This document shows positions 5,160 to 25,387 of a stretch of 57,672 nt of DNA, piece after piece. A program made the translations under genes and the position numbers. The DNA is taken from assembly GCA_018813505.1 (NCBI GenBank), contig JAHJBM010000056.1, positions 1 to 57,672 of the forward strand. Reading direction: 5' to 3'. Source of the stretch: Candidatus Micrarchaeota archaeon. Its GTDB lineage: Archaea > Micrarchaeota > Micrarchaeia > Anstonellales > Bilamarchaeaceae. Numbering within the stretch: the first letter of the stretch is position 1; the number at the start of each line of letters is the position of its first letter. Below the pieces are notes generated by a model. It made no database searches and was not told the origin of the DNA. It was given only the letters and a program-made list of their open reading frames with translations.

Positions 5160-6849
5160 AAATTTTCCCCTTTAGTGTATACAGTATAATGAATAGAATA
5201 AATAAAAAGATTGAGATAATCACAATTATGCCATAATAATATGAATTATCAAAATTATCCTCGGTTTTCGTAGGTATTTCTACAGTTTTTATCTCCTGCG
5301 TCATGTTTTCTGTTGCCCTATCAAGTTCCTGTGCGAGCCTAAAAATCTTATATGCGGTATTTGTTTCGTTCATATGATAAAGAAATGCTGCATGTGATTG
5401 GTATATTCCGCCCCACAGCGAGGTTCTATTCTCGTCTATCATTTGCACAACCTCTATGGCAACCGATCTATTTGATATATCTCTATCTGCATTTTCCATT
5501 GCAATAACATATGCACTATCATATATGGCGGCACCATATCTTCCTTTGTCATAGGAATCCTGTGCAATAATAAGTCGTGATGCTGTTTCTGGTAGCATGG
5601 TACCTGTTGCCTCGGCATTTTCTAGCATGTCTTGTGCAAGTTGTTTCCATGCGCTTTCGTTGATCACATTCCCGTCATCAGGTGTGGATTTTATGGTCTC
5701 TTTGGCAACCATACACCATGCTTCTGCATACACAAGCTCATTATATCTTACGAATTTTTCATCTGCAAGCAGGTCATTTACCTCTGTTGTCTGTAGTCTG
5801 TCATATGCCCATGCCTGTCTAAGGTCTGAACCAACAACCCATTCAAAATTTGTGTCTGTTATATTTGGTCTCACTATGCTGGTCAGACATTTGCCTATCT
5901 CTCCTTTCTTACGTGGCAGGTCTACATCGCCTGATAATAGTGTATTTATTGTCGATATATCTATGTAATTCAGGAATGCCTCGTTTGCGGCTGTGAAAAT
6001 ATATCCCTGTCCAAGTATTCCTTCCTGTCTCTGGATCTCATTGCTGAAATACTCATATATCTGTAGGCTTTCATTGTCTCTGGTCTGTATTGTTTCTATC
6101 AGACTTTGTTCTAGTGTTATCATTCTTCCTGCAACTTCCCTGAAATTTGCAATTCCTTGGCCCTGATAATCATATTCAGGTAATGCTGGGATTTCCCTTT
6201 TTCTTGATGTTAGGGGATTTTGTTCAATACTTCTGTTTTCTGTCATAAACCCTATGACATCGTTGACTGTGGATGCCTCAAACACTATTATACTATGCTC
6301 TTTTTCAAGTTTTTTGAGGATAAGGTGCTCATAAAGGCTCTGTGGTGGAGTGATAAAATAATCTGCACCGACCAGTATCGCTCCTTTTGCTTTTTCATAC
6401 AATCCGCCAACAATCCCTACATTGCCATTATTATCTACTGTGCCGGTTATTACCGTATCATTCCTCATGGTCTTATTGGTCATTACACTATACATCATGA
6501 CTGCGAGTGCAGTGCCTGCACTTGGTCCATCTATGAAAGCAGTATCTTGAACAGGTTTGAATGTTATAATAAGATCGCATTTCCGTTCTTCACCTGAAAT
6601 TTCATATGCATAATCAGATGCATGTATTATTGATTCCTGAGTCATCAGACCAGTATTTGGGTAGATGCTGACATATACTCCTCCTCGATCCATCTGCGTA
6701 TCAATCATGGCTATTGTTACATTTACCATTGCACCATTGTTTCCGACAACCGCGGGGATATAATGTGTTACCTGCCCTCCGCATGTATAAGAAACAGATA
6801 TAATCGTTAGTATCAGAATTAGGAAAACAAAAAAAGTCCTCATAGTCAT
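5101..6849 (-). CDS. extracytoplasmic Lon-like (peptidase S16 fold) serine protease domain protein with signal peptide, helical middle region and C-terminal TM anchor
   Basis: N-terminal signal peptide MTMRTFFVFLILILTIISVSYTCGG. Lon proteolytic-domain signatures DGPSAGTALAV (Ser) and GGLYEKAKGA (Lys). C-terminal TM YYYGIIVIISIFLFILFIILY followed by a basic tail. No AAA+ module. Confidence 0.65.
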   Translation of the reverse strand: MTMRTFFVFLILILTIISVSYTCGGQVTHYIPAVVGNNGAMVNVTIAMIDTQMDRGGVYVSIYPNTGLMTQESIIHASDYAYEISGEERKCDLIITFKPVQDTAFIDGPSAGTALAVMMYSVMTNKTMRNDTVITGTVDNNGNVGIVGGLYEKAKGAILVGADYFITPPQSLYEHLILKKLEKEHSIIVFEASTVNDVIGFMTENRSIEQNPLTSRKREIPALPEYDYQGQGIANFREVAGRMITLEQSLIETIQTRDNESLQIYEYFSNEIQRQEGILGQGYIFTAANEAFLNYIDISTINTLLSGDVDLPRKKGEIGKCLTSIVRPNITDTNFEWVVGSDLRQAWAYDRLQTTEVNDLLADEKFVRYNELVYAEAWCMVAKETIKSTPDDGNVINESAWKQLAQDMLENAEATGTMLPETASRLIIAQDSYDKGRYGAAIYDSAYVIAMENADRDISNRSVAIEVVQMIDENRTSLWGGIYQSHAAFLYHMNETNTAYKIFRLAQELDRATENMTQEIKTVEIPTKTEDNFDNSYYYGIIVIISIFLFILFIILYTLKGKIYGGHGNRHNKTNRTKKKKG

Positions 6850-8355: not shown

Positions 8356-11300
8356 TCAATCAATTATAGTGCAATTTATATCATACTCTCTTATATTTAC
8401 GACCTGCATTCCACAGAAGCTTGATATCGTTTGTATATCTGAGAAATCTCCACCTATACTGCAATCTGCGTTCGGATCCCCTGTTTTTGGGAATACTATT
8501 GGTTTGTTTATGGGATGTATCGATGATTTTTTTGAATAGCTATATGTTATTCCTGTGGTTTCATCGAGTAGGCAGCATTTATCTGGCTTTGAAAGCCCGC
8601 CAACGACGTCAAGATAAAGCTCAGAACCTACATCTGCCATTGATCCGGATATCGTTTCAGTTGTACTGTTCAAATATGTTTTCGTACATACATAATTTCC
8701 AGGTATCTCATTGCACAATCTGCACGGTTCCAATATTGTATTGTCAGGACATTTATACTGTACTCCTGCCTCAACACTATCAGGTAGTGTACAAAGTTCT
8801 CCATTCTCACAGGTCATTTCACAACTGCCCGGAGTTTCTACCTCGAGGCTATTGCATCGTGTGCAGTTTATCGATGTAAGTGCTGGTATTTCAGCAAACA
8901 TCGCCATTGGTGGACTTGCAGACATCATTCCCATTGCCTGTTGGAATGCACAGAACTTTTCATCTTTTATGCCCACGCCAGCATCAACATCCACCAATCC
9001 TGTTGATCCACTACCACTTTCATCGGTTGTCCTGACTGGTGAATATATTATCCCTATTATCCCTGACTTGATGAAGTCATCTTGTTTAAGTATCATATTT
9101 ACAAATATGTTCTCATAGTCTGCCCTATCAAAAACAGGGTAATTCTCAAGATTGAATCCTACTACCATTGTCGGTTTTCCTTTTGTTTGCAGTGCTATTC
9201 GGCCATATGATTCAAGATCCTCAGCAATCGCATTACCTCCGAAAAAAATTACCGGGCGTTCAGATGCCCTATAATCAAACGTTACAAGATCGATGTTGAA
9301 ATAGATTCTTGGGTCAGCTAGCACCGATACTACTGAATCTCTGAAGCTTTCATTTGTTAATGGGTTATCAACGTGGAATGCAACAAGACACCCAACACAT
9401 TTGCTTCTTACAATTGCAGATCGTTGTGCGATTTGTTCTATATCCTCAGCAGTTGCCTCACCTTTTATATGGTCTACAATGACTACTGTTGCACCCATAT
9501 TACCGAACAACTTTTCAAAATCATAGTCAAGATATTCATCAGATGCCTCAGTATAAAACAATGAATAGAACCATCCATATTCTTCATAATCCGGATTTTT
9601 CAGATTCCAATTAGTTTCATTACTTATATCAAGAACCGGCATAACTCCTGATTTCATATAGTTGCCCAGTCTCATCTTCATAACTGCGGCATCTGGTGCA
9701 GTTCTTGGCGATCCTTTGCTTCCTATCGAATCCATATATTCATCAATATCTGTGATATGGGGATTATAGCATGAGACACTATCGCTAACTTCTGTACCAT
9801 CTGACCAGCTCCAGTCTGCACTGTACTCTGCATCACATATCAATTCTTCATTCCTGTATTCACTGTCCTGTATGTTTGCAGTAATACCTGGCATGTAAAC
9901 ATCATCCTCTGCCTTTATCTCCTGATATGCGAGTGTTGATGTTGTACATGGATTACACCAGCCATATGTTTTCATCGTTGGCAGATATGTGGCATCATCA
10001 ACTGCGCAGCTGCCAATTCTGCCTGAGGTAGGGTTATATTTGAACAAATAAATGTACTTGCTGAAGAGCATGTTATACTCGGTTTCATAATCGCCGAAAG
10101 CTAATGTATAAATCCACGATCTCCTAAGTTCGCAACTACGTGTGTCTTTCCAATCATTTTCCATTATCCAGTCATATACATTTCTTTCACTTAACGATTG
10201 GGGGGCGAGAGAGCTGACAAATAAACTTCGCCTTCCTTCCCATGAAAAAATGTCCGTTACTCCCTTGCTATAGCTCACCACCCACGGGATCGAAGCGATT
10301 ATTGGATCATAAACATTCATGATCCCTCCGCATCCATCGCTGAATCCATTTTGCGTCATTCCTTCGACATTATCAAGGAAATATGGTGCAAATGCTTCCA
10401 TGAGGGTATCCCATGTCTGGTCTCCTTGAGAGTTTATTTGTAATCTTATGTAATCATCTGTATTGATTGTTCCAGTATCCGCGGCACTGCATGGTGCTGG
10501 TCCGGTGGCAGTACAATAAGCACTACATTCTTCTGCAAGTACATCTCCTTCATCATCATCATATGCTGGTGCACATGTATCTGCACATCCTGTGTCACAT
10601 TCCCAGCTACCATCCTGTTCAGGAAGCGAGAACGTGCTGGTGTGATCCATATCACAGTTTTTCACCACATACATATCCTCAAATTCATCAGGGCTTGCTA
10701 TTGCATATCCTATTATCGTATCGCCCATGTAAGTTACTGTATCCTGCCCTATTCTTCCAAAGAACACTGCACCACCTATTGGTGGTTGGTATGTGGATTC
10801 ATCAACCATTGAACACACTACAAAATCTTCACCATCATTTTCGCCATAGTCTTGCGGGCAGTCCCTTCTTTGTGTCAGATACGTATCAATATTGTATGGG
10901 GTGTGACTGATAATTCTTGTTGAGAATACTGTGCTTCTTGGTCCTGTTACCCAATCACTATCAGTAAATTCGTTCCAGTATCCTTCAAGTTCTTCCATCT
11001 TGTCATCGTCCATGAAATCCTCAAGCTCATACAATGGATTTCTGCCGCCTTCAACATGTGCAAACCCAACATCGACTTCAGCATAATCTATTGTTGGCGG
11101 CATTGTAGGATTTGGCTGGATAATATTTGTGGTTGGTGCACAGACTATTCTTGTCCTTCCATTTACATCCGTAATTTTGTTGCAATCAACCACCACTTCG
11201 GTTAGTGTTTCTCCCTCATCTGCACTATATCTTACGAATACTCCTCTGTTATATATACTCACATCACAGTTTCCAGAATAACACTCTGATTTACCGGCAT

Positions 11301-12312
11301 CACACTCAAAAGGTGCTCTTGTTGTTTCACCGCCAATGCCATAAATATCTCTTGCGTGTGCAACTGCAAGATTTCGTTTATAAAATCCAATGTCCAGTTC
11401 CTTATAAACGCTTTCAGGATTGAAATATTCATCACTATATGTGTAAAATCCCCCATCGTCAGCTACCCATTCTGCTTGATAATCAACATTTCCATGATGC
11501 GATAGATTGTAGCTTGACTGATCTGGCATTAATGTATCATACGTTATATCTCCAACCTCTGGCAGCGTACTTGACCTCTCGCCAGAGCTTTCAGAAAATT
11601 CAAAAGGTGCGGGTATATCGGAGTCATCAAGGCAATTTTCATCTATGTCAGATATCGGATCGAATTCGAGTCTGTCTGCACCTATATAATTCATATATCT
11701 ATCAACCCTTAGATCGTCTTCACTTCTTGGTGGATTGATATTGCAGAATTTGTCAGACATCGGGAAGTAATATTTATACTGGTCATATTCATTGAATGAG
11801 CCACCAACTCCCATTCTGAATACATTTATCGCTGATTTTGAATTTTTCATTACCTGCCTTAATTTTGCATCCATAGGAAGGAATCTGCACTGTGCCTTGT
11901 AGAACTGTGTTGTTATTCCTTCTTCAGTATCGGGCGGAATATCACCTGAAGAATCCTCTACACTTATGAATCCTGGTGCAACTCTTGGAGTGTATTTGTA
12001 GTCCCCACAAACCATGGCAGTACACTCTGGTGCTATGCAGGTTACAAGATCATCCTGTGTACATATCGGTATAAGATATTCGGTGCCTTCTATATCTACC
12101 TTGCAGTTGTCCGTCGTATCCTGTTCCTCATTGTCACATTCGCCTATTGTTGAACCAGTATAATCATATTCTAGGAAGTCTGTGGTGTTATAAAGTACAC
12201 ATCCATCCTCTATATTGTCTTTTAGACAACATCCCAATTTTGTTACTGGTTTTATGCATCCGGCGGCAATAATCAGCACAACAACCAGAATTGCAAATGT
12301 GAGTTTTTTCAT
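8356..12312 (-). CDS. giant (1318 aa) acidic, cysteine-rich secreted/lipoprotein-like protein, function unknown
   Basis: Signal peptide with lipobox-like end (MKKLTFAILVVVLIIAAG-C). I counted about 51 Cys. No further TM segment. An alternating beta/alpha-looking central segment (ATVVIVDH..CLVAFHV..LVTFDY..TMVVGFNL..IIGIIYSP). C-terminal CxxC-rich module. Confidence 0.85.
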   Translation of the reverse strand: MKKLTFAILVVVLIIAAGCIKPVTKLGCCLKDNIEDGCVLYNTTDFLEYDYTGSTIGECDNEEQDTTDNCKVDIEGTEYLIPICTQDDLVTCIAPECTAMVCGDYKYTPRVAPGFISVEDSSGDIPPDTEEGITTQFYKAQCRFLPMDAKLRQVMKNSKSAINVFRMGVGGSFNEYDQYKYYFPMSDKFCNINPPRSEDDLRVDRYMNYIGADRLEFDPISDIDENCLDDSDIPAPFEFSESSGERSSTLPEVGDITYDTLMPDQSSYNLSHHGNVDYQAEWVADDGGFYTYSDEYFNPESVYKELDIGFYKRNLAVAHARDIYGIGGETTRAPFECDAGKSECYSGNCDVSIYNRGVFVRYSADEGETLTEVVVDCNKITDVNGRTRIVCAPTTNIIQPNPTMPPTIDYAEVDVGFAHVEGGRNPLYELEDFMDDDKMEELEGYWNEFTDSDWVTGPRSTVFSTRIISHTPYNIDTYLTQRRDCPQDYGENDGEDFVVCSMVDESTYQPPIGGAVFFGRIGQDTVTYMGDTIIGYAIASPDEFEDMYVVKNCDMDHTSTFSLPEQDGSWECDTGCADTCAPAYDDDEGDVLAEECSAYCTATGPAPCSAADTGTINTDDYIRLQINSQGDQTWDTLMEAFAPYFLDNVEGMTQNGFSDGCGGIMNVYDPIIASIPWVVSYSKGVTDIFSWEGRRSLFVSSLAPQSLSERNVYDWIMENDWKDTRSCELRRSWIYTLAFGDYETEYNMLFSKYIYLFKYNPTSGRIGSCAVDDATYLPTMKTYGWCNPCTTSTLAYQEIKAEDDVYMPGITANIQDSEYRNEELICDAEYSADWSWSDGTEVSDSVSCYNPHITDIDEYMDSIGSKGSPRTAPDAAVMKMRLGNYMKSGVMPVLDISNETNWNLKNPDYEEYGWFYSLFYTEASDEYLDYDFEKLFGNMGATVVIVDHIKGEATAEDIEQIAQRSAIVRSKCVGCLVAFHVDNPLTNESFRDSVVSVLADPRIYFNIDLVTFDYRASERPVIFFGGNAIAEDLESYGRIALQTKGKPTMVVGFNLENYPVFDRADYENIFVNMILKQDDFIKSGIIGIIYSPVRTTDESGSGSTGLVDVDAGVGIKDEKFCAFQQAMGMMSASPPMAMFAEIPALTSINCTRCNSLEVETPGSCEMTCENGELCTLPDSVEAGVQYKCPDNTILEPCRLCNEIPGNYVCTKTYLNSTTETISGSMADVGSELYLDVVGGLSKPDKCCLLDETTGITYSYSKKSSIHPINKPIVFPKTGDPNADCSIGGDFSDIQTISSFCGMQVVNIREYDINCTIID

Positions 12313-12407: not shown

Positions 12408-13457
12408 TCATACTACCTTACTAACCATTCTTGTGAGCTCATATGTATCTCCTCCAAGTATTGTCATCATGTATTTTACAAAAACCATTGTAAGGAAAAA
12501 TGCTATAAGTGGATGCATTATGAGTGCAATATAGGATTTTGATAAGCCCTCACGCGAGGCCGAAAGCGAGAGTCCGACATTGCTTCCGAGTCCTGCACTC
12601 TCTACTGTCTTTAGTATTGTTACTGCATTTGACATTGTTGCATAACAGAATGGTTGCTGTTGTGGTTCTGCAGTTGCTGGTGGGGGTGGTGAAGCTACAA
12701 ATCCCGGATCAAGCAGCACAAAAAATATTGGAAAAATGAAATACATTCCTATTCCTAGGGCAAGGAACAACGCGCCCGGACCACGTGTGAAATAAAAACT
12801 CCGCAACAATATGCCAATAGGTATGAAGATACTGAGCATATTTGTTTGCAGATACTGCAGAAGTATCGATTGTGCATTCAATGCTATCAATAGAACAGTT
12901 GAAAGGTTATTTATTATTCTATTTATCTCTGTTTTTTTGTATAGTGTTGGAAGCCAGTCTCCTTTGAAAACAGTTATGCCAAAAAGACTTACTGCAAGAT
13001 TAAGTGAAAAATAATCCCAATATGTATCTGTATTTACTCTATCCTGTATTGCTGCCACTGCAACTGCTCTTTCCTGTAATCTGCATCTTATGGCATCATA
13101 TGCATCATCCATTGTTGTTTCCGGGTGATCTATGTCTTCGCCTATATGTATTGGTGTTGTTCCGCAATCAACTGTACCGCCTATAAACTGCTGTGACAAA
13201 ACCATAGTGCCTTCAACAATTCCTACAAGGAATATTGCCATAAAAGCAGTTGCCATAGTCTGAAGCATTTCTGATTTTGCAAATGCCTCAACTTCTCTAA
13301 GTGAAAATGCCCTTGCAATCATCAGGAAAATATTGTAAATTATCAGTGCTGTGATGACTGCCATAATACACAATGGCAACCAACCGGCCATCCATGTGGC
13401 ACCGTTATCGCCAAAGAAACTTTGGATTGAAATTATCGGGACGACAGCATCGATCAT
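12408..13457 (-). CDS. paralogous 5-TM membrane protein MP1 (349 aa), unknown family
   Basis: Shares family motifs EAFAKSE, FIPIGILLRSFYFTRGPGALFLALGIGMYFIFP and the C-terminal tail LGGDTYELTRMVSKVV. Confidence 0.85.
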   Translation of the reverse strand: MIDAVVPIISIQSFFGDNGATWMAGWLPLCIMAVITALIIYNIFLMIARAFSLREVEAFAKSEMLQTMATAFMAIFLVGIVEGTMVLSQQFIGGTVDCGTTPIHIGEDIDHPETTMDDAYDAIRCRLQERAVAVAAIQDRVNTDTYWDYFSLNLAVSLFGITVFKGDWLPTLYKKTEINRIINNLSTVLLIALNAQSILLQYLQTNMLSIFIPIGILLRSFYFTRGPGALFLALGIGMYFIFPIFFVLLDPGFVASPPPPATAEPQQQPFCYATMSNAVTILKTVESAGLGSNVGLSLSASREGLSKSYIALIMHPLIAFFLTMVFVKYMMTILGGDTYELTRMVSKVV

Positions 13458-13482
13458 GTCATCATCCTCGCCATTATAATCA

Positions 13483-14544
13483 TCATATCATCCTCGTTAT
13501 TCTGCTCAAATCTATCTCCTCGCCGTACAATCTTGCTATGTAGGATATGCTTGCTATTGTAGCGAGCATTGCCACGCTTGGCATAAATACTGCGGCTATG
13601 AATGCGTATGCAGCAAAACTTATGGCTTCAATATATCTGTCTTCACCTGGGAAATACTTCTCATATATATAATCTGCGCCTGCAAATGCGGCTCCTGTGC
13701 TTGAACCTGCTGCGCCTGATTCAGCTTCATCAGGGAAGACCTTTTCATTATAATTCATAGATGGATCAGAGAGATAATCCCCTTCTCTATTGACGAGTAC
13801 GTCTCCCATCAGATAAAATATGGAAAGCATAACAGGATAAACAACCAGGAAACATATCGCCATTGTTATAAGGAGCGATCCAAATGATCTCATGTATGGC
13901 ATTGCTCTCAGGAAGACTCCAAGCGGAAGGAATAGAAACACAAATCCTTTGTAAACAAATATGAGAATAAAAAGAAAGTTTAGTGCAGAGAAATACGATA
14001 TTATTGATGAATTGAAAAAGATGTTAAGTGCAGCTACTTTTGCACCATAACCTCCAAGTGGTTGTTGGTTCTCGCCAGAATACCCAAACAAACAACCCCA
14101 TCCTATTGATCCTGTGCTGAAATCGCAGATAAAGGCATTCAGGTAACCGAGCACTGTGTAGGCCTGAAGGTGATATCTTGTGGCAATCAGGGCATTGTGA
14201 GAATATATTGCAGCTTCTTCCAGATAGGTGGATGCGGCATCATAAACATCAACATGTTCTGTTGGCGCGCTTGTTGTTATGTCAAAAATGCCTGCAACTT
14301 CATTCATATTTATTGAACAAAGCGTATTTATGATTGTGATAAGAAAAAATATTGTGAATAATGATACTACTATTTGAATTGATTCTGTCTTTGCCCACAA
14401 TGTTAGTTTTGGATTTGAAATGGCCCTGCCTACCATGAATGAAAGCGCTATGATTATTGCGGTTGTTATGCTGGCATATGCTATTAGAGGTAGTATAGTA
14501 TCATTGAAAAAATTTGTGAAAATTATGTTACATACGTCTGCCAT
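13483..14544 (-). CDS. paralogous 5-TM membrane protein MP2 (353 aa), unknown family
   Basis: Motifs ISNPKLTLWAKTE, FLPLGVFLRAMPYMRSFGSLLITMAICFLVVYP and tail YGEEIDLSRITRMI. Its start overlaps the MP3 stop (TAATG). Confidence 0.85.
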   Translation of the reverse strand: MADVCNIIFTNFFNDTILPLIAYASITTAIIIALSFMVGRAISNPKLTLWAKTESIQIVVSLFTIFFLITIINTLCSINMNEVAGIFDITTSAPTEHVDVYDAASTYLEEAAIYSHNALIATRYHLQAYTVLGYLNAFICDFSTGSIGWGCLFGYSGENQQPLGGYGAKVAALNIFFNSSIISYFSALNFLFILIFVYKGFVFLFLPLGVFLRAMPYMRSFGSLLITMAICFLVVYPVMLSIFYLMGDVLVNREGDYLSDPSMNYNEKVFPDEAESGAAGSSTGAAFAGADYIYEKYFPGEDRYIEAISFAAYAFIAAVFMPSVAMLATIASISYIARLYGEEIDLSRITRMI

Positions 14545-15548
14545 TATACGAACCTCGATATTGCGCTTATATCTATTTCTGCACCTGCCAAGGATGTGAT
14601 TGCCTTTATGCTTGCAGCAACAAGCAGTAGTGATATTACTGGTCCAAGTGTTGCCCTCACCAGGGCAGTGTAGATATACTTACGTATGTCTGACCGTAAG
14701 CCTCGATATGCTTCTTTTGCATTGTCCTCATTTCCAGTTGTTGTTAGTGATGCGGCATCTCCTGCATTACACTCCGCTATATTTGCTGTTGGTGCTGCTG
14801 GTCCATATACTAATTCTGCATCAAACTCATCATCGTCATCAAGGAATGTTGCGGCCATCATTTCATTGAATATGATACCTGCCGGAAGCATTATGTATAA
14901 TGCAACCCCTAGTGCAATAAGCAATCCACCAGCTCCCCTCGTGAATTTCACCGTCCTTAATACTATGCCTAACGGAAGGAGCAGATTAAGTGCAAACTCT
15001 TTTGTTATCTGGATAAGTCTCTTCATTGCACTCAATTCCCCAATTGAAAATCCTACAATATTACCTGCGATTGAAAGTGGAGCAGCTAGTACAGTATAAC
15101 CCCCACAACCGCTGACAGTATATCCCATTCCCATTATGCTACATTGTGATGACTTAGATGCTTCCCTTGATATCTGTAAATCATAAGAACTTATCTGATC
15201 CATTATTTCTCCACTATCGTCTATAATATCATCAATAATTAGTGTTGCTGCATCCTGCATTGTTGCGGATCCTTGTGCGAGTCCTTCGTTTGTTGAGATG
15301 CTGTTTAGGATACTGTCACCGCCTACTAATGTTGCAAGAAGGAGTCCAAAAACAATTAGCTGTACTAGTTCTTCCTTTGCCATCATTTGCATTTCATTTA
15401 ATCCAAAGCCAAATCCTACCATATATATAACTGCAAGTAATCCTGCTGATATGCCAAATGCAAGAAGTGCAATGTTCTGCCATGCTGCAAATGCCATTGG
15501 CACCATGAACAAAAATATCAATAAAAACAACATCGTGCGCTTCATCAA
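14544..15548 (-). CDS. paralogous 5-TM membrane protein MP3 (334 aa) with signal peptide, unknown family
   Basis: Signal-peptide-like N-terminus ending MAFA-AW. Motifs MQMMAKEE, LLPLGIVLRTVKFTRGAGGLLIALGVALYIMLP and tail AGAEIDISAISRFV. 4-nt overlap with MP4. Confidence 0.85.
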   Translation of the reverse strand: MMKRTMLFLLIFLFMVPMAFAAWQNIALLAFGISAGLLAVIYMVGFGFGLNEMQMMAKEELVQLIVFGLLLATLVGGDSILNSISTNEGLAQGSATMQDAATLIIDDIIDDSGEIMDQISSYDLQISREASKSSQCSIMGMGYTVSGCGGYTVLAAPLSIAGNIVGFSIGELSAMKRLIQITKEFALNLLLPLGIVLRTVKFTRGAGGLLIALGVALYIMLPAGIIFNEMMAATFLDDDDEFDAELVYGPAAPTANIAECNAGDAASLTTTGNEDNAKEAYRGLRSDIRKYIYTALVRATLGPVISLLLVAASIKAITSLAGAEIDISAISRFV

Positions 15549-17662
15549 AACACCTTAGATATTCCTGGGATTTCTATGTCCCCTCCGAGTATGGTTGAAA
15601 GTCCTTTGATAAATACCAATGTCGCTACAATATTGAACAATGGAAGCAGGTATATTGGAAGTATCAATTTAGCGATGTTCTTTATTCCCTCTCTACCAAC
15701 CAAGCCATCTTCACCTATGTTCATATAACTTCCAGCATCCTTTATGGGTGCATTATCCGGTGGTTTGCAGATATCTGCGCATTGGGTTTGGATTGGTGGA
15801 TCATATGCATATGATTCTTCAGCAAACAAACACATTTCGCACGAGCTTCTTGGAACTACTACTCTATACTCGCCAGGACACAAATCAAGTGAGCACCCAT
15901 CTGTTGTGTATTCTTCTGGTAATGATGGGGTTACAATTCGTTTTTCAGCTGGGCAAGCACTACACATTCCTTCAGGCACGGTAATCTCAAGTATGTCATG
16001 TTTCCTTACCTTACAACTGTTAGGGCAGTTCATACATGCTTCTGAAAACACTGTTCCTGTTTCGTCCTTGCAATCATCAGGTAGTTGATCAAAATCTACT
16101 TGGTCTTCTTCAGTATAATTTGGGTTGTTATCTATCCTGCAATAGGCCGGGCAATTCCCGCATATTGCCTCGTCATTGCATGTGCCTATTTCAGGTATCA
16201 CATATGCACATGATTGTTCTGCAACTAGGTTCACTGGGCAATTCTGTGCAATTAAACATTCATGATAATTTCCTGCATCTTCATTTGGCGTAGGCCACCA
16301 TGTGAGCGAACTACCCAATTCGCTTCCAGTTCTTTTGTATACTCTGCAATCATATCTTGACTCAAGGCAGTCATCAACATCACAATTACTTCTTAATGGT
16401 GGAACTACCTTGCACATTGATGGGCATTTATTATAGGTATCATTGTCAAAACTTGAAGCTTCAGTATTCACATAACGCACAACTTTGCAGTTCTCGTTTA
16501 AGTGTGCACAATCCCTTTCAACTGTCGAAGTATTAAGGCACACTACTGCATTATATGGATAAGGTAGTGCTCTGCACACTGATGGGCAATCCTCTTCACT
16601 ATATTCATAATAACACGAGAAGACTAATGTGCCATCGCGGCCAGCTGTCGATTCCAGGCTGCCTTCTATTAGTTCTTTTGCTGCAGCTGCGTTATCCTCA
16701 GGTAATGCGGCATATATCTCTTGTACGGTTTCAAGTTTTTCTCCATCTGCTTTATACGCAAGTGGTGGGGCTGCTTTGCATTCATCAGGACAATAGACAT
16801 TTTCATCTTCCATTGCCTTATCACCTGTCATGGCCATATCAAGTGTAACCCAGTCAAAAATGTACATGCCAGGTAAGAAGAACATTATGCCTGCTGCAAC
16901 TGCAATAAGAAGTCCGCCTAGTTTTCTTGTAAAATAAAATGTTCTGGCAATAATGCCCAAGGCAAGTATTATCGGTCCCATCTTAAACGATATCTGGTTT
17001 ACAAAGAACCGTTGCGCTTCCATGAAAGATAATAGGTTTGTATAGTACTCAAACATTATGGCATACATATCCATGTCCAGCACATACTGCCCTGCCATCG
17101 TAGTTGTGAGTCCGAGTTGTAAACAATATATTGTCAGGCAGTTAAGTCCCATCCTTCTGTTTGCCCATGAGGCCGCATCGATATTGTTTATTAGAACACT
17201 TCTTGCTCCTGTTTTTGCAGTTTCAATATAATCATACAAATACGCATCTGTGACATTTCTTAGACAGCTTCCTCCAGGTACACTACATTCAGGTATATTT
17301 AGCCCGCTTGTCATTACCATTGCAGAAACTATGGTATCTACAAATCCTATGGCAACTATGAACATCAGGATTATTACAGCATTTGCAAATATCTGGCCAA
17401 GTTCATTTCCTGCCCATGCTTTTATTTCAGGCATTTCCATTCCAGTTCCTACTGCATATGCAATAGCAACCAATATGCACGATATAATCAGTGCAATCAC
17501 AGCAAGCGCTTGCCAGTTTTTTATTATTTCAAGTGGTGATCCTTCGGTCTCACCTTCTATTCCAGAAGTCGCATTCTGAAACTGCGTTTGAGTATATGTG
17601 TTTGCAAAGCAGAGCGTTATGAACAACGTCAGGAATATAAGAAGCAGTATTGGTTTTTTCAT
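15545..17662 (-). CDS. paralogous membrane protein MP4 (705 aa) carrying a ~370-aa, 32-Cys ectodomain insertion
   Basis: Signal peptide MKKPILLLIFLTLFITLCFA. Motifs MPEIKAWAGNE, IILALGIIARTFYFTRKLGGLLIAVAAGIMFFLP and tail LGGDIEIPGISKVF. The Cys-rich insert lies in the loop after TM4. Confidence 0.85.
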   Translation of the reverse strand: MKKPILLLIFLTLFITLCFANTYTQTQFQNATSGIEGETEGSPLEIIKNWQALAVIALIISCILVAIAYAVGTGMEMPEIKAWAGNELGQIFANAVIILMFIVAIGFVDTIVSAMVMTSGLNIPECSVPGGSCLRNVTDAYLYDYIETAKTGARSVLINNIDAASWANRRMGLNCLTIYCLQLGLTTTMAGQYVLDMDMYAIMFEYYTNLLSFMEAQRFFVNQISFKMGPIILALGIIARTFYFTRKLGGLLIAVAAGIMFFLPGMYIFDWVTLDMAMTGDKAMEDENVYCPDECKAAPPLAYKADGEKLETVQEIYAALPEDNAAAAKELIEGSLESTAGRDGTLVFSCYYEYSEEDCPSVCRALPYPYNAVVCLNTSTVERDCAHLNENCKVVRYVNTEASSFDNDTYNKCPSMCKVVPPLRSNCDVDDCLESRYDCRVYKRTGSELGSSLTWWPTPNEDAGNYHECLIAQNCPVNLVAEQSCAYVIPEIGTCNDEAICGNCPAYCRIDNNPNYTEEDQVDFDQLPDDCKDETGTVFSEACMNCPNSCKVRKHDILEITVPEGMCSACPAEKRIVTPSLPEEYTTDGCSLDLCPGEYRVVVPRSSCEMCLFAEESYAYDPPIQTQCADICKPPDNAPIKDAGSYMNIGEDGLVGREGIKNIAKLILPIYLLPLFNIVATLVFIKGLSTILGGDIEIPGISKVF

Positions 17663-18660
17663 CCTAACACCTTCATCGCCTTATTCATCCCACTTAGGAA
17701 CGTTATCAGTACCGCAATAGTTAAATTTGGCAAGAAGAATGCCTGTGGTATAAGTCTTGCAACATTCCAAAAGCTGTTCGGGTTTGTGCATGTGGCTATC
17801 GGATCATCTGAGCAACCATAGCTGTCTATGGTGTTGTCACATGCAACATGCGCATATTCTTCACAGTCATACATCACTAATTCATACATAGTAAGCGTGA
17901 ACACATACATAAACGGTACGAGTATATAAAGTCCGAGTGCCAGGGCAATCATAATATTTCCCATTTGTCGTGTTGGTGGGAATACACGCAATACAAATGC
18001 TACTGGCAATATCCATCTTACCGTATTATCTGTGATAAATCTCAGCGCAAGTTTCTGCATGCTTATACTCATAAGTGAGGGCACAATGAACGTATTGAGT
18101 ATCATATCATATTGGTTTGAGATTATTCTTTTGTATGCCCCACCGCTTACTGTGTATGCATTGAACAGAGGTATTTGTATACTATATGAAAATGTTGAAT
18201 CCATAAGGTATCCAATATAATTGTCTATATATCTTTCAGCCAATCTCTTTGAATCACGATCTATCATATTCATGTAGCACATGGAAACAGAATTCATTTG
18301 AGAGCCTGCATTATAACATGTGGATTCCGCGTCAAAATGTGTGAATATCGATTCATAAAACATGCTCATAGTACTACATGTAAAAAGCACTATTCCGCTA
18401 AAAGCAACCAGCATCAAAAGCGAAAATCCGAGGTGGTAAAGTTCGTCTTTTGCAAAAACAATGTATTTTGGGTCGCTTATAACGTTTCCTAGCATGTAAG
18501 TTCCTGCAATTACAAGTACTGTGAGCATGATCGCTGCAACAATGTTTACTCCTTCTTCGCTTAGCACAATTTCTGTGGCATTATTGATACAACTGCCTGG
18601 GAATACTACTGCGGTTAGAAACAGAACAGCTATTATGATCCTGCATATGGGAATCATCAT
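17659..18660 (-). CDS. paralogous 5-TM membrane protein MP5 (~333 aa) with signal peptide, unknown family
   Basis: Motifs ISDPKYIVFAKDE and ILPVAFVLRVFPPTRQMGNIMIALALGLYILVP. I prefer the start at MMIPICRII (18660), which forms an ATGA overlap with the MP6 stop. The ORF track extends to 18690. Confidence 0.8.
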   Translation of the reverse strand: MMIPICRIIIAVLFLTAVVFPGSCINNATEIVLSEEGVNIVAAIMLTVLVIAGTYMLGNVISDPKYIVFAKDELYHLGFSLLMLVAFSGIVLFTCSTMSMFYESIFTHFDAESTCYNAGSQMNSVSMCYMNMIDRDSKRLAERYIDNYIGYLMDSTFSYSIQIPLFNAYTVSGGAYKRIISNQYDMILNTFIVPSLMSISMQKLALRFITDNTVRWILPVAFVLRVFPPTRQMGNIMIALALGLYILVPFMYVFTLTMYELVMYDCEEYAHVACDNTIDSYGCSDDPIATCTNPNSFWNVARLIPQAFFLPNLTIAVLITFLSGMNKAMKVLG

Positions 18661-19856
18661 ATCAGCCTCTGTATTCCTGCCATATACCACTCGCCTCCCA
18701 GCGCCCCGGAAATACTTCTAGCCCCTGCAATCGTTATGATTCCTATAAGTATAATGTCAAGATAACCTAGAAAAACAAGGTTGCCCACATCCCTCAGGAA
18801 CGGGTAAAGTGCATTGAATACCTGATTTGCATAATCATCTGATCCTGCGCTATAAACCGCTTCCCATATTATAAGCACTGCCATTATCACGAGCTGGAAA
18901 ATCATATTTATAAGAGGATAAACAACTTCTTTTACGAGGTTATAACAGGCCGTGTATAATCCAACGCCGATAACTGGTACAAGCAGCATTGGCAGGCATA
19001 CGATAAGTGCGAATCCAATATCAGTTGAAAGTAGCAGTGTCCTCATTACAGTTGATTCGCATAATGGTTCCATCATTACCATTGCCCATGGCCTTGCTTC
19101 AAGTTCTGAAAGATCGATGCTTGGTTCAGGTCTATCTATTGTTTGGTTCATTGATTCTGCAAGTATCACTGAAAACGGGAGCAATACTATACCTGCAACT
19201 GCAAGCGCTATAAGTGTGTTGCCTGTTTTTCTTGTGAATGGTATAATCCTAAGGCAAAGTGCAAGTGGGAGAAGTATTTTTGGTGCTGTTATTTTGATAA
19301 ATGAAAGTAACATACGTACTCCTTCTGTTACAAATATTACGTTCGCAAGATTTTGGGCTGCAATATTCATGCTTCCGAGTACTATGCCCACACCAGCTAT
19401 TGGTGATGTTGAATAGCTAATTGATACATACCATAATGGCAGGCTCATGTATGGTGAATAGGTAGCTGATGCGCGAATCCTTGTTGCAGCACCAACTATT
19501 TTTTCAAATGCATTGTCATAATCTTCAAGCCATTGATCTGCGATATTCTCTGCACCCTGAATATAATTCACATCTCCAGTAAGTGCAATACTTATGCTGT
19601 TTGATGTTACTGTAAAAAACAATCCCATGATAATCGCGATCAATAAAAGTGCTGCAACAAATTCCCGTGTTTCAATCTTGATCCATGCGTCAAGCTTTGG
19701 ATCAGAAATCGCATGTGAGAGCATTCCTGCAGTAGCAAGAAATATCCCTACTATGATTGCAACTGCCGGTACTGCAAAAGTAAGGTCTATGGGATTTACT
19801 GAAAATATTGTGGTTGTTAAGACAAATAGTAATAATATAGGGCGCCACAATTGCAT
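18657..19856 (-). CDS. paralogous 5-TM membrane protein MP6 (399 aa), first gene of the operon, unknown family
   Basis: Signal-peptide-like N-terminus. Motifs ISDPKLDAWIKIE, LLPLALCLRIIPFTRKTGNTLIALAVAGIVLLP and tail LGGEWYMAGIQRLI. Confidence 0.85.
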   Translation of the reverse strand: MQLWRPILLLFVLTTTIFSVNPIDLTFAVPAVAIIVGIFLATAGMLSHAISDPKLDAWIKIETREFVAALLLIAIIMGLFFTVTSNSISIALTGDVNYIQGAENIADQWLEDYDNAFEKIVGAATRIRASATYSPYMSLPLWYVSISYSTSPIAGVGIVLGSMNIAAQNLANVIFVTEGVRMLLSFIKITAPKILLPLALCLRIIPFTRKTGNTLIALAVAGIVLLPFSVILAESMNQTIDRPEPSIDLSELEARPWAMVMMEPLCESTVMRTLLLSTDIGFALIVCLPMLLVPVIGVGLYTACYNLVKEVVYPLINMIFQLVIMAVLIIWEAVYSAGSDDYANQVFNALYPFLRDVGNLVFLGYLDIILIGIITIAGARSISGALGGEWYMAGIQRLI

Positions 19857-19950
19857 AGCTAGATTTCTTACTTATACATTTAAATGTTTCGTGTTTTTGG
19901 AATCGTGCATGATGCATCATGTTTATAAATTTACTAAAATAATTCCCATC
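19857..19950. promoter_or_regulatory. divergent promoter region with two TATA-like boxes
   Basis: ATTTAAAT (19878-19885) is centred ~25 nt from the MP6 ATG (19856, minus). TTTATAAAT (19922-19930) is centred ~25 nt from the ATG at 19951 (plus). This spacing fits leaderless archaeal transcripts. Confidence 0.4.
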
Positions 19951-22900
19951 ATGAGGCTTATTCCAGCTTTTCTCTGCATTGTGCTCTTTGTTCTTATCAC
20001 ATCTGTCGCTTTTGTCTTTGCCAGTAACCCACCTCCGTGTATCACATGTAACGAGCTTGCAGATTCATTCCAGGTACATCTATTGTCTGAGTTGCACGAG
20101 CCGGAAAACCAGTTTGAGGTTTGGGCATACTATGAAGATACTTCCATAAGTCCTCCAAGGCAACCTGTAAATGATTCCATACTTATTGTTGAAATAAGAA
20201 ATGTTGATGGACTAAGTGAAATCTATAAAATATACACCGATGATGCTGGGAATGCAATTTTTGATTACGAGGACTGGAATGACGCTTGCATAAATTTCAA
20301 AGTTCTTTATTGTCCTTTTTGTTTGCCAGATTCCGAGGAATGCGGTTTCCGTGAATGCCTTGAATATTCGAGCATAAGCACAGATTCTGGTACATACACC
20401 AACATTATCGGAGCTGTTGAAACTATTGATAGTATTCCTGCTGCACCTGGGGCATCGCCGCCTGTTGAGTTGGATTCGCGGAGATTTCTTCCAGAATTCG
20501 TAACAACAACCTATTGTCCCCCTCCTGCTCCACTTTCAGGTACTCCGGCAATGTGTCTTCCATTATTAGTTATTTTTTCAATGCTTGCAGGTTCACTTTA
20601 TATGACCGGGCGAAATCCGTTTGCAGGATTTAGTATGGGTGGTGCAAAGATTGGGAGGCACATCAGATACCAGGCACGGGGTCGCGGTTTCCATTTCTCT
20701 GGAATGGCTGCACTTTCTGCAATTAGTACTGTCACGCGTGCCAGTAAGACTGGAATGACTAAAGACAAAAAAACTGGTGAACGTGGTGGTTCCAAGGCAC
20801 TCGGAAAACAAGAAAAAGCGCAGGCAAACAATCGCGGTTTCCTTGGCATGGGTGGCCTTAGCAGTAAAACAAGCAGATTTTCTGCACTCTCAAACCGCGG
20901 GGGGCAGATAAAACGACTCATGAAAGATAGTTTAAAAGGAAAAACAGATAGCAAAGGCAAAGCTCTAAGTTTCAATGAAAGACTCAAGCGCGGTAACAAA
21001 TGGATTGAATCAACTGCTTCTGGGGCTGGTAGGGATACCGCAACATCAGTTGCTGTAAAACCTGGGGAATCCCAATTCCTTCCAGGTTCAAGTGGTATGT
21101 CACCCCGTTTAAGCGAGCTCGGGAGTCATGCCGGCCTAGGACTTGTAGTTTATCTTCTTAGTGCCACAACAATCGGTGGTATTGTCGATAGCATTTATCG
21201 ATCTGCCACTGGGCAATCTATATTCGAGGCTCTTTTTGTCGACCATGAAAGACGTGCAGTTCAGGATGCAACCTCCTTTGATGAAATCGCAGAGCAAAGA
21301 TGCGTGCGTAATGCAGATGGACGCATAATTGCATTGAACATTGACATAGATGGCCGTGAAAGAGTTACTGTCATTGGCTCAAGGCCTGGTGAGGAAGAGG
21401 GTACAACTGTTTACACTGTCAATGTACCTGTAAGTTCAGAATTTGCAGGTGAGGAAACAGTTGTTGTTGATGAACATGGGACAGCTGTTCCAACTCCCTC
21501 TGGACAGACAAATCGCGGGACATTTGAAGTTACTACTGATTCCAGAAATCGCGTAATTCAGATAGCTTATCAAGCGCCTTCATCAATTAATCTTTCTGGT
21601 CCTAATGCGTCTCCATGGGTTGCAGGTGCTGCACCAGCAGATCTTATTGCTGGAACAGAGCGTGTGGTAGTGCGTGTCGGGGCTGATGGCTCTCCGCAAT
21701 TTACTGTGGAATATCAGATTCGCGGTAGCGATGGTCGTGCTGAGACACGCACTTCACCAATTACCGCGCCTGTTGCAGGCACTGATATTGAAGGTTTGGG
21801 TGACCGCATGAACTTTGCAGGTGTGAATGCAACCTATGGTGGTATAGTTGCCGAGTCTGGGTTTAGTCTTGGTTCAAACGCATCTGACTTTACTAATGCC
21901 TATAGTGGAGGTCTTGAGGATCTCAGGGCTGCTGCGGCTTCATCTTCAGAAAACACTCAACGGGCACAACAGGAAAATCAACATGATCTTAACAGGGCAT
22001 TGCGCGATGTTGATCCAAATTATGTGAGATCTGTAAGGGCCGAGTATGCAGACAATCTAGTCGGATTCCTAGTAGCTGGTACCTCTGGTTCCACTGCAGG
22101 TGTTGATCTTCGTGAGACTAGTTTTGAAGGTCAGCCGGCTGGTCCTGGATATGATGTAAGTTATGCAGGTTCAAGAGGTCGGGTTGAAGGAGGCAGACCT
22201 AATGATCGGATGGATCCTTCTTCTTCAATTGCGTTAAACATTGGCCAAGCTTGGGGTCGGACAATTGGTGACTCTGATTTTGCAGGTCAGGTTGCAGAGG
22301 CATCTGGTCTTGAAGGTTCAGGTAGGGTTCAATTTACCCGCGTTTTAGGCATTGCATTGGCCAGAAGTGATCACAGTCCTGAGGATTTCAGAAGCATGAC
22401 TCTTGATGAATTCCAGGGGGTGCTTAGAGACAATGGTCTGAGTGAGGATGTTGCCCGTGATGTTGGAGCCGGTGCGCTTGCAAGAGTACAAGATGGTTTC
22501 GCTGATCTTGAACGTGAACTGACAAGGGAAGGAAACAGAATCGGCGCAGATGCAACAGATCGTCTTATGGGGTCCAGTGTAGCACAAGTTAGTGGGGTGG
22601 TGCAGGGTGCAGGGTCTCTTTTTGATGATAATGTAGGTTCATTATTACAGGATCGTTTGACTGATCCACAACTTGCGGAAGTTGCCCCCCAGTTAAGAGA
22701 ACAGGCTTTCCTTGATGGTATGGGTGATTCAGTGGGTGGGGCACAGGCCTCTTTGGGAGTTAATGCTGGGTCTGGCCCTAATAGTAATATTGTAGGTTTC
22801 GAACAATTTGGCGGTAATATGGCTTCGCTTAGGGAAAATACTGAAGACTATGTACAACAGGTTGCAATTGATCGTGCTCATCGTAGCGGTCATCTGAGTG

Positions 22901-23460
22901 ATGAAGATTATCAAGAATCAAATCGTGCATTCGATGAATTCATAAGAGCAAGAAGGATCGAAGAAAGTGGGGCAATGGATCCTGGTCAAGAATTCCGGGC
23001 AAGAGAAAATACCGAACGTTACATAATGGATGGTAACTACACTGGCGCTATCTATGAGCTGGATCGCAGGCGTGTGGCGTATGAACAGGCAGAAGATACG
23101 GCTACTGCAGAAAGATATGCCGAGGCCAGACGTTTAGTGGCAGGACATGCTGGCGAATCTGGTTTTTCAGCATCTCAGGCACAGGAACATGTTGATGAGT
23201 ATCGTGCTGCAATTGGCATCCCTGAAGAACGAGAACAGGCTAGGCAGGAGGCAACACTACGTAATCATGTGTATCATACACCAATGCCTAGTGATTCGGA
23301 ATTAAATGATAATGCAGAGAGACGAAGAGCCAATCGTTTGGCATCTGAAGCATATGGTCATAACACGCAAGCAAGAGCAAATGGTTCAGAGATTCTTATT
23401 GGTGTTCGTGAACATCTTATTGAAGCCAATCCGACTTTCAGCAAAGATAAAAAGAATTGA
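19951..23460 (+). CDS. large (1169 aa) membrane protein: Cys-containing N-terminal ectodomain, TM segments, basic Gly/Ser/Lys/Arg linker and ~770-aa Cys-free Gly/Ala/Arg/Asp/Glu-rich tail; unknown function
   Basis: The ORF-track start (19594) lies inside MP6 on the other strand. MRLIPAFLCIVLFVLITSVAFVFA at 19951 is a signal/TM start behind a TATA box (alternative ATG at 19909). TMs: AMCLPLLVIFSMLAGSLYMTG and GLGLVVYLLSATTIGGIVDSIY. Confidence 0.8.
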   Translation: MRLIPAFLCIVLFVLITSVAFVFASNPPPCITCNELADSFQVHLLSELHEPENQFEVWAYYEDTSISPPRQPVNDSILIVEIRNVDGLSEIYKIYTDDAGNAIFDYEDWNDACINFKVLYCPFCLPDSEECGFRECLEYSSISTDSGTYTNIIGAVETIDSIPAAPGASPPVELDSRRFLPEFVTTTYCPPPAPLSGTPAMCLPLLVIFSMLAGSLYMTGRNPFAGFSMGGAKIGRHIRYQARGRGFHFSGMAALSAISTVTRASKTGMTKDKKTGERGGSKALGKQEKAQANNRGFLGMGGLSSKTSRFSALSNRGGQIKRLMKDSLKGKTDSKGKALSFNERLKRGNKWIESTASGAGRDTATSVAVKPGESQFLPGSSGMSPRLSELGSHAGLGLVVYLLSATTIGGIVDSIYRSATGQSIFEALFVDHERRAVQDATSFDEIAEQRCVRNADGRIIALNIDIDGRERVTVIGSRPGEEEGTTVYTVNVPVSSEFAGEETVVVDEHGTAVPTPSGQTNRGTFEVTTDSRNRVIQIAYQAPSSINLSGPNASPWVAGAAPADLIAGTERVVVRVGADGSPQFTVEYQIRGSDGRAETRTSPITAPVAGTDIEGLGDRMNFAGVNATYGGIVAESGFSLGSNASDFTNAYSGGLEDLRAAAASSSENTQRAQQENQHDLNRALRDVDPNYVRSVRAEYADNLVGFLVAGTSGSTAGVDLRETSFEGQPAGPGYDVSYAGSRGRVEGGRPNDRMDPSSSIALNIGQAWGRTIGDSDFAGQVAEASGLEGSGRVQFTRVLGIALARSDHSPEDFRSMTLDEFQGVLRDNGLSEDVARDVGAGALARVQDGFADLERELTREGNRIGADATDRLMGSSVAQVSGVVQGAGSLFDDNVGSLLQDRLTDPQLAEVAPQLREQAFLDGMGDSVGGAQASLGVNAGSGPNSNIVGFEQFGGNMASLRENTEDYVQQVAIDRAHRSGHLSDEDYQESNRAFDEFIRARRIEESGAMDPGQEFRARENTERYIMDGNYTGAIYELDRRRVAYEQAEDTATAERYAEARRLVAGHAGESGFSASQAQEHVDEYRAAIGIPEEREQARQEATLRNHVYHTPMPSDSELNDNAERRRANRLASEAYGHNTQARANGSEILIGVREHLIEANPTFSKDKKN

Positions 23461-25225: not shown

Positions 25226-25387
25226 GCCGAGGTCGCATAATCTGGTAGTGCGCCGGTCTTGAAGCGTTTTGTGTTTTGTTCTTTTGGTTTTGAGTTGGGG
25301 TTTTTTTCCCAAAACCGGAAACTAAAAACCCAAAACGCAATTCAACCGGTCCCTCTGGGATTACAGGTTCAAATCCTGTTCTCGGCG
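25226..25387 (+). tRNA. tRNA-Ser(UGA) with an 80-nt intron at the canonical 37/38 position
   Basis: Cloverleaf read by eye. Acceptor GCCGAGG/TCTCGGC. D arm GCAT-AATCTGGTA-GTGC. Anticodon stem CCGGT/ACCGG with loop CT-TGA-A[intron 25264-25343]A. Long variable arm TCCCTCTGGGATT. T arm ACAGG-TTCAAAT-CCTGT. Discriminator G. No encoded CCA. Confidence 0.85.

Follow-up and report, generated by a model that had tools for sequence, protein, structure and literature searches.

We analysed a 57,672-nucleotide contig of Candidatus Micrarchaeota archaeon (JAHJBM010000056.1, forward strand; hereafter the window), which belongs to an assembly of 1.54 Mb in 95 contigs (GCA_018813505.1) from the family Bilamarchaeaceae, order Anstonellales. 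The gene studied here lies at 15545-17662 on the minus strand and encodes a membrane protein of 705 amino acids (aa) with 38 cysteines. It is one of six tandem paralogous genes, here called A to F, and occupies the D position. Among the six paralogues, only D has a long loop between the fourth transmembrane segment (TM4) and the last one. The reading that we favour, with a probability of about 0.6, is that this loop forms an extracellular domain held by ~16 disulfide bonds, acting as a rigid outer head on one subunit of a hitherto undescribed envelope complex whose six subunits are non-equivalent.

Residues 291-632 of D, encoded at 15767-16792 (-), hold exactly 32 of its 38 cysteines. Translation thus reproduced both the count and the span given by the initial annotation of this DNA, in which D was named MP4. 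There are five copies of the motif CPxxC[KR], starting at residues 291, 359, 413, 504 and 546, and their sequences are those quoted there. In 20,000 shuffles of residues 286-645 the motif was found 0.017 times on average, at most twice and never five times. Plain CxxC was not enriched in the same residues (4 observed vs. 2.8 in shuffles), and CxxxC was mildly enriched (6 observed vs. 2.7; 833/20,000 shuffles). Across the 2952 open reading frames (ORFs) of the genome, the D gene is the sole ORF with more than one CPxxC[KR]. The variant CADICKPPDNAPI at residue 628 and the CSAC-P string at residues 567-571 were also as described. Three copies of the motif had been said to continue as xxPP; this is exact for two of them (AAPP and VVPP), but the third reads ALPYP. 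The claim that only this paralogue is expanded was confirmed: from the basic R-x3-F-T-R turn to the last TM, the loop measures ~390 aa in D versus ~40-60 aa in A, B, C and E (F has extra hydrophobic segments), and the five sister proteins are 334-399 aa long.

The D protein can be divided into a membrane core, the cysteine-rich ectodomain and a conserved end, all on the minus strand. The core (residues 45-285; 16808-17530) is common to D and its five paralogues and comprises TM1, TM2, outer loop 1, TM3, the RTFYFTRKLGG turn and TM4; its outer loop 1 contains the Cys pairs 126/133 and 175/180. The ectodomain (residues 286-645; 15728-16807), predicted to fold compactly, lies between TM4 and TM5. 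It consists of an N-terminal lobe with 13 Cys (residues 289-440; 16343-16798) and a C-terminal lobe with 19 Cys (residues 469-632; 15767-16258). The last TM helix and the conserved tail LGGDIEIPGISKVF (residues 658-705; 15548-15691) form the most conserved part of the protein.

The cysteines of the ectodomain are strongly conserved. All 32 were invariant columns in an alignment of 44 orthologues. In an alignment of 81 sequences, 31 were invariant, and the two apparent losses of C531 were alignment shifts. Altogether, 80 orthologues keep all 32 cysteines at 38-54% identity to the ectodomain of the window. The number of cysteines in the domain was exactly 32 in 61 of these 80 orthologues, 34, 36, 38 or 40 in 17 and 33 in two; hence, it was even in 78 of the 80. 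Extra cysteines always occurred together within one loop or insertion, 5-19 residues apart. Besides cysteine, the invariant residues were a few Pro, Arg364, Arg440, Arg509, Ser435, Ala481 and Gly493, and the orthologue alignment contained no invariant His or Asp ligands. Mean pairwise identity amounted to 43% in the insert (37% without the Cys columns), 55% in the membrane core and 73% in TM5 and the tail. The invariant cysteines and the low identity of the other residues imply a fixed disulfide scaffold beneath a freer, faster-evolving surface.

Full-length orthologues of 680-740 aa at 41-60% identity were common. None of 94 homologues had an assigned name, and those labelled with an organism came from Candidatus Micrarchaeota, Bilamarchaeum or similar metagenome-assembled genomes (MAGs). 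A phmmer search with the isolated domain against 1.84 billion representative proteins returned 45 matches. Matches of at least ~530 aa carried the module from about residue 260-500, and shorter matches look like fragments. Judged from these sequences, the module is confined to this protein family and, within it, to this position. In a divergent subgroup the first 13 cysteines (residues 291-439) are retained, and residues 356-432 are the best-conserved stretch. The C-terminal half of this subgroup was mostly unalignable to the domain profile, with only a few of the first cysteines of that half still aligning. This pattern points to a conserved N-terminal lobe, which is kept in the divergent subgroup as well as in other families of the order, and a variable C-terminal lobe, which is multiplied in larger versions. 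We also tried to derive the Cys pairing from co-loss in the divergent homologues, which showed just a block replacement of the C-terminal half.

Secondary structure assigned by DSSP to the predicted model was mapped on the sequence, and the units at residues 359, 413, 504, 546, 570 and 595 were found to have one common local shape in this predicted structure, consisting of C-P, a three-residue helical turn, K/R and a two-residue strand. Variants of this CP-turn geometry are seen at residues 291 and 628. Two units without a second Cys keep the shape, and the five units listed in the initial annotation thereby become eight. Unit 1 (CPDECKAAPP, residues 291-300; 16763-16792, all units on the minus strand) has the variant geometry. 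It is followed by unit 2 (CPSVCRALPY, residues 359-368; 16559-16588), in which R364 is invariant, and by unit 3 (CPSMCKVVPP, residues 413-422; 16397-16426). Unit 4, (CGN)CPAYCRIDNN at residues 504-513 (16124-16153), has the fuller form CxxCPxxCR and the invariant R509, while unit 5 is (CMN)CPNSCKVRKH at residues 546-555 (15998-16027). The units with the same predicted turn and strand but without the second Cys are unit 6, (CSA)CPAEKRIVTP at residues 570-579 (15926-15955), and unit 7, CPGEYRVVVP at residues 595-604 (15851-15880), of which the latter had not been listed before. Unit 8, CADICKPPDN at residues 628-637 (15752-15781), is again a variant.

The spacing of the units is CX3C rather than the redox-type CXXC, and no Cys spacing of 2 (C-x-C) occurs anywhere in the domain. 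Comparison of six domain segments with hhalign yielded matches of just 8-16 columns, the best of which paired units 1 and 3 (probability 92.5). Such motif-level matches rule out a tandem array of a long repeat, and on this sequence evidence the CP-turn is a recurring short element. A hidden Markov model of the 15-residue unit was too weak for counting units in distant proteins, and counts by regular expression were used instead. Many copies of the fuller form CxxCPxxC[K/R] are present in other families of the order.

AlphaFold2 predicted a confident, compact fold for residues 283-645 alone (81 sequences), with a predicted local distance difference test score (pLDDT) of 93.5 and a predicted template modelling score (pTM) of 0.88. 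In the full-length model the mean pLDDT was 81.9, and the insert was well scored. This model contains very long helices at residues 78-119, 133-168, 190-241, 243-285 and 658-691.

The repeat had not been recognised as a named domain in the initial annotation, and our searches agree with this. When all eight operon proteins and the isolated domain were compared with Pfam and NCBIfam, no meaningful match emerged; at E <= 10 the isolated domain matched 0 Pfam families, and hence no Fer4, zinc-finger, other metal-domain or thioredoxin-family profile. Neither a sequence search nor a profile search of the PDB with the domain produced a match. Foldseek searches with the domain model found three PDB chains, all at E >= 8, and a best E of 1 in BFVD. 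In these profile and fold searches (Pfam, NCBIfam, PDB, and Foldseek against PDB and BFVD) there was no match to furin-like, EGF or TNFR modules, to variant-specific surface proteins (VSP) or to the Myxococcus Cys-rich repeat. Likewise, Foldseek showed no thioredoxin fold, and the units are C-x3-C. At the sensitivity used, the model corresponds to no known fold among PDB and BFVD, and it is possibly a new disulfide-rich fold. Searches of the literature, including papers on cultured Micrarchaeota and on Micrarchaeota genomics, revealed no description of the operon or the domain.

From hydropathy and charge we infer that the N-terminus of D is outside (after a signal segment), with TM1 running inward, TM2 outward, loop 1 outside and TM3 inward; the basic turn would then be inside, TM4 would run outward, the insert would be outside and TM5 would run inward. 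Paralogues C, D, E and F have signal-peptide-like N-termini, and in A and B TM1 is directly preceded by a short N-tail free of basic residues. Lys and Arg amount to ~30 per 100 residues at the extreme N-terminus and in the TM3-TM4 turn of the 44 orthologues, and every orthologue has three basic (K/R) and no acidic (D/E) residues in this turn. The insert is acidic, with a net charge of -37 in the protein of the window. The basic N-terminus and turn, together with the acidic insert, point to an insert that lies outside, and they agree with the earlier proposal of a surface module. Furthermore, loop 1, which this topology model puts on the side of the insert, contains a Cys pair in every paralogue from A to E, and most orthologues contain N-x-S/T sequons (mean 4.4).

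The genome also encodes proteins suited to disulfide formation. It has three Thioredoxin_4/DsbA-like genes, one of which lies in the window at 36498-37427 (+) and encodes a membrane-anchored protein with an N-terminal TM anchor, a thioredoxin fold and a CPYC active site. Its sequence makes it a candidate catalyst of extracytoplasmic disulfide formation. There are also two CcdA/DsbD-TM genes, one of which, on contig C60, shares its strand with a DsbA-like gene ~700 bases away. The even number and invariance of the cysteines, the gain of extra cysteines as local pairs and the presence of Dsb and CcdA genes lead to the disulfide reading; hence, the ectodomain is most likely held by ~16 disulfide bonds, in line with the disulfide-knotted module proposed in the initial annotation. 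Genome-wide statistics give weak support. With a crude classifier, Cys content was 2.0% in exported-like versus 1.25% in cytoplasmic-like proteins, and with the same crude classifier the Cys count was even in 63 of 112 exported-like (56%) versus 308 of 699 cytoplasmic-like proteins (44%; Fisher p = 0.019).

The six paralogous genes are all on the minus strand. Upstream of D lie F (18657-19856, 399 aa) and E (17659-18690, 343 aa), together spanning 17659-19856, while C (14544-15548, 334 aa), B (13483-14544, 353 aa) and A (12408-13457, 349 aa) follow downstream at 12408-15548. The start of D overlaps the stop of the upstream paralogue (ATGA), and its stop overlaps the downstream ATG (TGATG). Pairs of paralogues are mostly 21-27% identical, with best pairwise E values of ~1e-9 to 1e-13, and they share the basic turn R-x3-(F/P)-T-R and the tail LGG(D/E)..I..IS. 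A giant secreted protein of 1318 aa with 51 Cys (8356-12312, -) is encoded in the same orientation at the end of the operon. The order F-E-D-C-B-A-giant was the same in three genomes of the same genus, four of other families and four of other orders, the paralogue family was present in 41 of 41 sampled relatives, and the A-type orthologue was single-copy in most genomes across the class. D occupies the fourth position of this conserved gene order and carries the hallmarks of its group, namely the R-x3-F-T-R-K-L-G-G turn (RTFYFTRKLGG) before TM4 and the tail L-G-G-D-x-E-I-x-G (LGGDIEIPGISKVF). The fixed gene order, the one-to-one orthology and the two overlapping junctions that were read suggest that the six paralogues form one hetero-oligomeric envelope complex with six non-equivalent positions.

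Orthologues of D in other lineages indicate how the insert arose. In other families of the order, the D-position proteins are 664 aa (45 Cys, 4 CPxxC[KR]), 1143 aa (86 Cys, 11 CPxxC[KR]), 1352 aa (75 Cys, 8 CPxxC[KR]) and 1380 aa long (106 Cys, 9 CPxxC[KR]). The domain profile matched these proteins with E values of 1e-6 to 1e-19, the big ones containing several partial repeats of it, and the insert ranges from ~290 to ~1050 aa across families. In four genomes from other orders, D has 405-449 aa, a Cys-free loop 2 of ~70-100 aa and 0 CPxxC[KR]. These proteins are true D orthologues, as shown by their FTRKLGG turn and LGGDxEIAGLTRIL tail. The absence of the insert from D in the four genomes implies acquisition on one subunit at the level of the order. 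The idea of a module grafted onto one subunit therefore holds at order level, and the graft is old and order-wide rather than recent. Judging from the motif counts, the insert appears to have been expanded later by unit multiplication.

Extracellular Cys-rich mass is found on different subunits depending on the lineage, either at the N-terminus of F or at the N-termini of B and C. In other orders, where D lacks the insert, the F-position paralogue has 584-762 aa and 23-38 Cys, with an N-terminal Cys-rich extension (L018 6632-8404, L019 11955-13709, L021 6409-8697). In one family of the order, the C-position protein (733 aa, 57 Cys) and the B-position proteins (442 aa, 1062 aa) have large N-terminal extensions without CPxxC[KR] (L012 10119-12320 and 12322-13650; L013 3419-6607). 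Within the window, the short loop 2 of paralogue E (17659-18690, -; residues 276-301, YDCEEYAHVACDNTIDSYGCSDDPIATC) contains four Cys and is a miniature Cys-stapled loop at the position of the big insert of D.

The initial annotation had further related the module to Cys-rich stretches in the giant protein and in a divergent membrane protein of 1169 aa. The strings on which this was based exist (SCEMTC in the giant protein, PPPCITC and YCPFCLPDSEECGFREC in the divergent protein), but the homology did not stand: the domain profile gave E = 8 with negative bits against the giant protein and no match against the divergent protein, and a module common to the three Cys-rich proteins is therefore rejected. 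Moreover, every orthologue of the giant protein examined contained 0 CPxxC[KR]. The three proteins are likely Cys-rich through exposure, not through common descent of a module. In the window the divergent protein is encoded at 19594-23460 (+), while in other families it is found downstream of the giant protein and shares its strand (L012 18851-20002; L014 19580-20002). Its place beside the giant protein in other families assigns it to the same conserved gene module, although its orientation varies by lineage.

Several observations weigh against an extracellular disulfide-bonded head. DsbB and VKOR, which serve DsbA re-oxidation, were not found in searches of the genome, a MAG that is ~91% complete. 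The count of 32 can also be read as 8 x 4, and there are three CxxCPxxC triads (at residues 501-508, at 543-550, and at 567-570 with the following unit) that could in principle bind metal. The TM1-TM2 loop, placed inside by the topology model, is net acidic. Finally, as regards a docking role, the insert of D does not vary in size in any obvious way with the giant protein. The points on re-oxidation, on the count and on the triads, whose spacing recalls that of cluster-binding sites, would fit a domain in which the cysteines are metal ligands, as Zn(Cys)4 or Fe-S, and which is metal-stabilised or acts as a redox or electron-transfer module. The frequency of the fuller CxxCPxxC[KR] in distant orthologues fits this as well, as does the fact that many Micrarchaeota come from low-oxygen habitats. 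However, no metal-domain profile matched even at the permissive threshold, the domain model resembled no known metal-binding fold such as that of ferredoxins in the Foldseek searches of PDB and BFVD, and the canonical Fer4 motif CxxCxxCxxxCP is absent from the sequence. Extra cysteines were gained in twos, always close together as a pair, and not in fours, the alignment offers no invariant His or Asp as a ligand, units 6 and 7 keep their predicted geometry without the second Cys, and the predicted location is outside the cell. We therefore consider metal binding improbable. An inverted topology, in which the Cys-rich loop would be cytoplasmic, seems still more improbable. It would accommodate the acidic TM1-TM2 loop, and the placement was derived from hydropathy and charge alone; yet it conflicts with the signal-like or non-basic N-termini of the paralogues, the basic TM3-TM4 turn free of acidic residues in all orthologues, the conserved Cys pairs in loop 1 on the same side, the sequons, and the lineage-specific Cys-rich additions at N-termini that the same topology puts outside.

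Another alternative accepts the extracellular location and concerns the function of the domain. It could primarily be a head for the recognition of partner or host cells, i.e. an adhesin or receptor-binding domain, with the N-terminal lobe as a scaffold and the multipliable C-terminal lobe providing lineage-specific specificity. Cultured Micrarchaeota live attached to hosts (PMC8784108, PMC11329633), and sequence changes faster on the surface of the insert than in the core (non-Cys identity of 37% vs. 55%). The C-terminal half that is mostly unalignable in the divergent subgroup, the wide range of insert sizes across families and the shift of Cys-rich mass between subunits (N-terminus of F; N-termini of B and C) would also be expected of such a head. 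In contrast, the domain is not hypervariable within the genus, where identity to the domain of the window is 38-54% and the cysteines and several Arg and Pro are invariant; neither Pfam nor Foldseek against PDB revealed a known adhesin family or fold; and the Anstonellales are described as relatively host-independent (PMC12892359). We regard recognition as the primary role as possible but rather unlikely.

In the favoured reading of a rigid outer head, residues ~286-645 would form one compact, acidic, outward-facing domain, tethered at both ends to the membrane core between TM4 and TM5 and held by 16 disulfides. Its skeleton would consist of the eight CP-turns, each with Cys-Pro, a helical turn that usually closes on the second Cys, an invariant or near-invariant Arg/Lys and a two-residue strand, and the larger versions elsewhere in the order would have grown by multiplying this turn. 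The domain would thus be a rigid, chemically tough head on just one of the six positions, through which the complex may gain an asymmetric surface for the docking of the giant Cys-rich protein, the S-layer or a partner cell. Such a docking or structural role is speculative. A bolder version, to which we give slightly less credence than to the recognition head and which is accordingly doubtful, holds that a new fold of disulfide-stapled CP-turns would be the head by which a six-paralogue hetero-oligomeric machine, specific to Micrarchaeota and involved in cell-cell contact or exchange, docks to partner cells or the envelope, with lineage-specific growth of the head tuning what is bound. A link between the operon and the barrel-like complex seen under the S-layer of ARM-1 would be pure speculation.

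The domain shares general features with several known systems. Furin-like repeats, CXXC-rich proteins of the Giardia VSP type and EGF and TNFR modules are extracellular and also have dense, strictly conserved cysteines, units that are short and irregular, a Cys scaffold that stays fixed while the surface evolves faster, and size changes by unit multiplication. In contrast, the unit described here, C-P-x-x-C-[K/R], is of the CX3C type, with a Pro that is obligatory and with a basic residue, and the domain is archaeal, without profile or fold match to these modules, and situated in a loop of a polytopic membrane protein rather than in a type I ectodomain. CS-alpha/beta defensins, scorpion toxins and twin CX3C proteins likewise have Cys at i and i+4 on a helical turn that is followed by a strand, and in the known CX3C helix cases each Cys bonds a different partner elsewhere. 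However, the domain lacks a C-x-C partner strand, combines eight units in a single 360-aa domain and has no sequence or Foldseek similarity to these proteins. With 4Fe-4S ferredoxins it shares Cys-Pro dipeptides, CxxC spacings and a Cys count that is a multiple of four; it differs in having CxxCPxxC instead of the Fer4 spacing, in lacking a Fer4 match, in its predicted extracellular location and in the gain of Cys in pairs.

For the membrane scaffold rather than the insert, VirB6/TrbL offers an analogy. These polytopic channel subunits of type IV secretion systems have multiple TMs, very long helices projecting from the membrane and a large outer loop, and in some systems they occur as multiplied paralogues. 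Foldseek of the full-length model gave insignificant helical-bundle matches, which included TrwI/VirB6 (7o3v_F; E 3.3, TM-score 0.14/0.27). The VirB6/TrbL profile PF04610 did not match either, and a Pfam scan of 26 ORFs, about half of those in the window, recognised no type IV secretion ATPase family.

A Cys-rich ectodomain without known function is not by itself a mechanistic surprise. The domain is, nevertheless, a confidently foldable piece of a conserved and completely unannotated operon and may be expressible alone, which makes it a practical entry point, through antibodies, pull-downs, structure and localisation, to envelope building and cell contact in Micrarchaeota and other DPANN. It also provides a clear example of a paralogous membrane complex in which a single subunit gained an extracellular module that was expanded thereafter.

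Further observations concern other copies and other genes. One genome of the same genus (G020) has two full copies each of the D and A genes, on contigs C6 (16706-18781) and C2 (14878-16893), with one A copy on each contig containing an in-frame TGA. These copies may represent a duplicated operon with a decaying copy, or a mixture introduced by assembly or binning. The genome of the window contains other Cys-rich ORFs, at C3:7024-9687 (+; 887 aa, 76 Cys), C55:14083-14919 (-; 278 aa, 41 Cys) and C55:3881-5824 (+; 647 aa, 39 Cys). All three are without CPxxC[KR], and some may be spurious frames. The DsbA-like protein of the window has a low-complexity linker rich in Asn, Ser and Ala. A 582-aa protein at 5101-6849 (-) combines a Lon_C proteolytic domain with a weak ABC-2-type membrane region and has no AAA+ module. 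In two genomes of the same genus (L009, L010), ORFs of comparable length (562-563 aa, then 263-266 aa) lie at the equivalent place next to the operon. Neighbouring genes in the window are archaeal and encode FttA, a proteasome subunit, exosome subunits and an intron-containing tRNA. The Rfam match of this tRNA gene, at 25226-25387 (+), spans 162 nucleotides, which implies a long intron.

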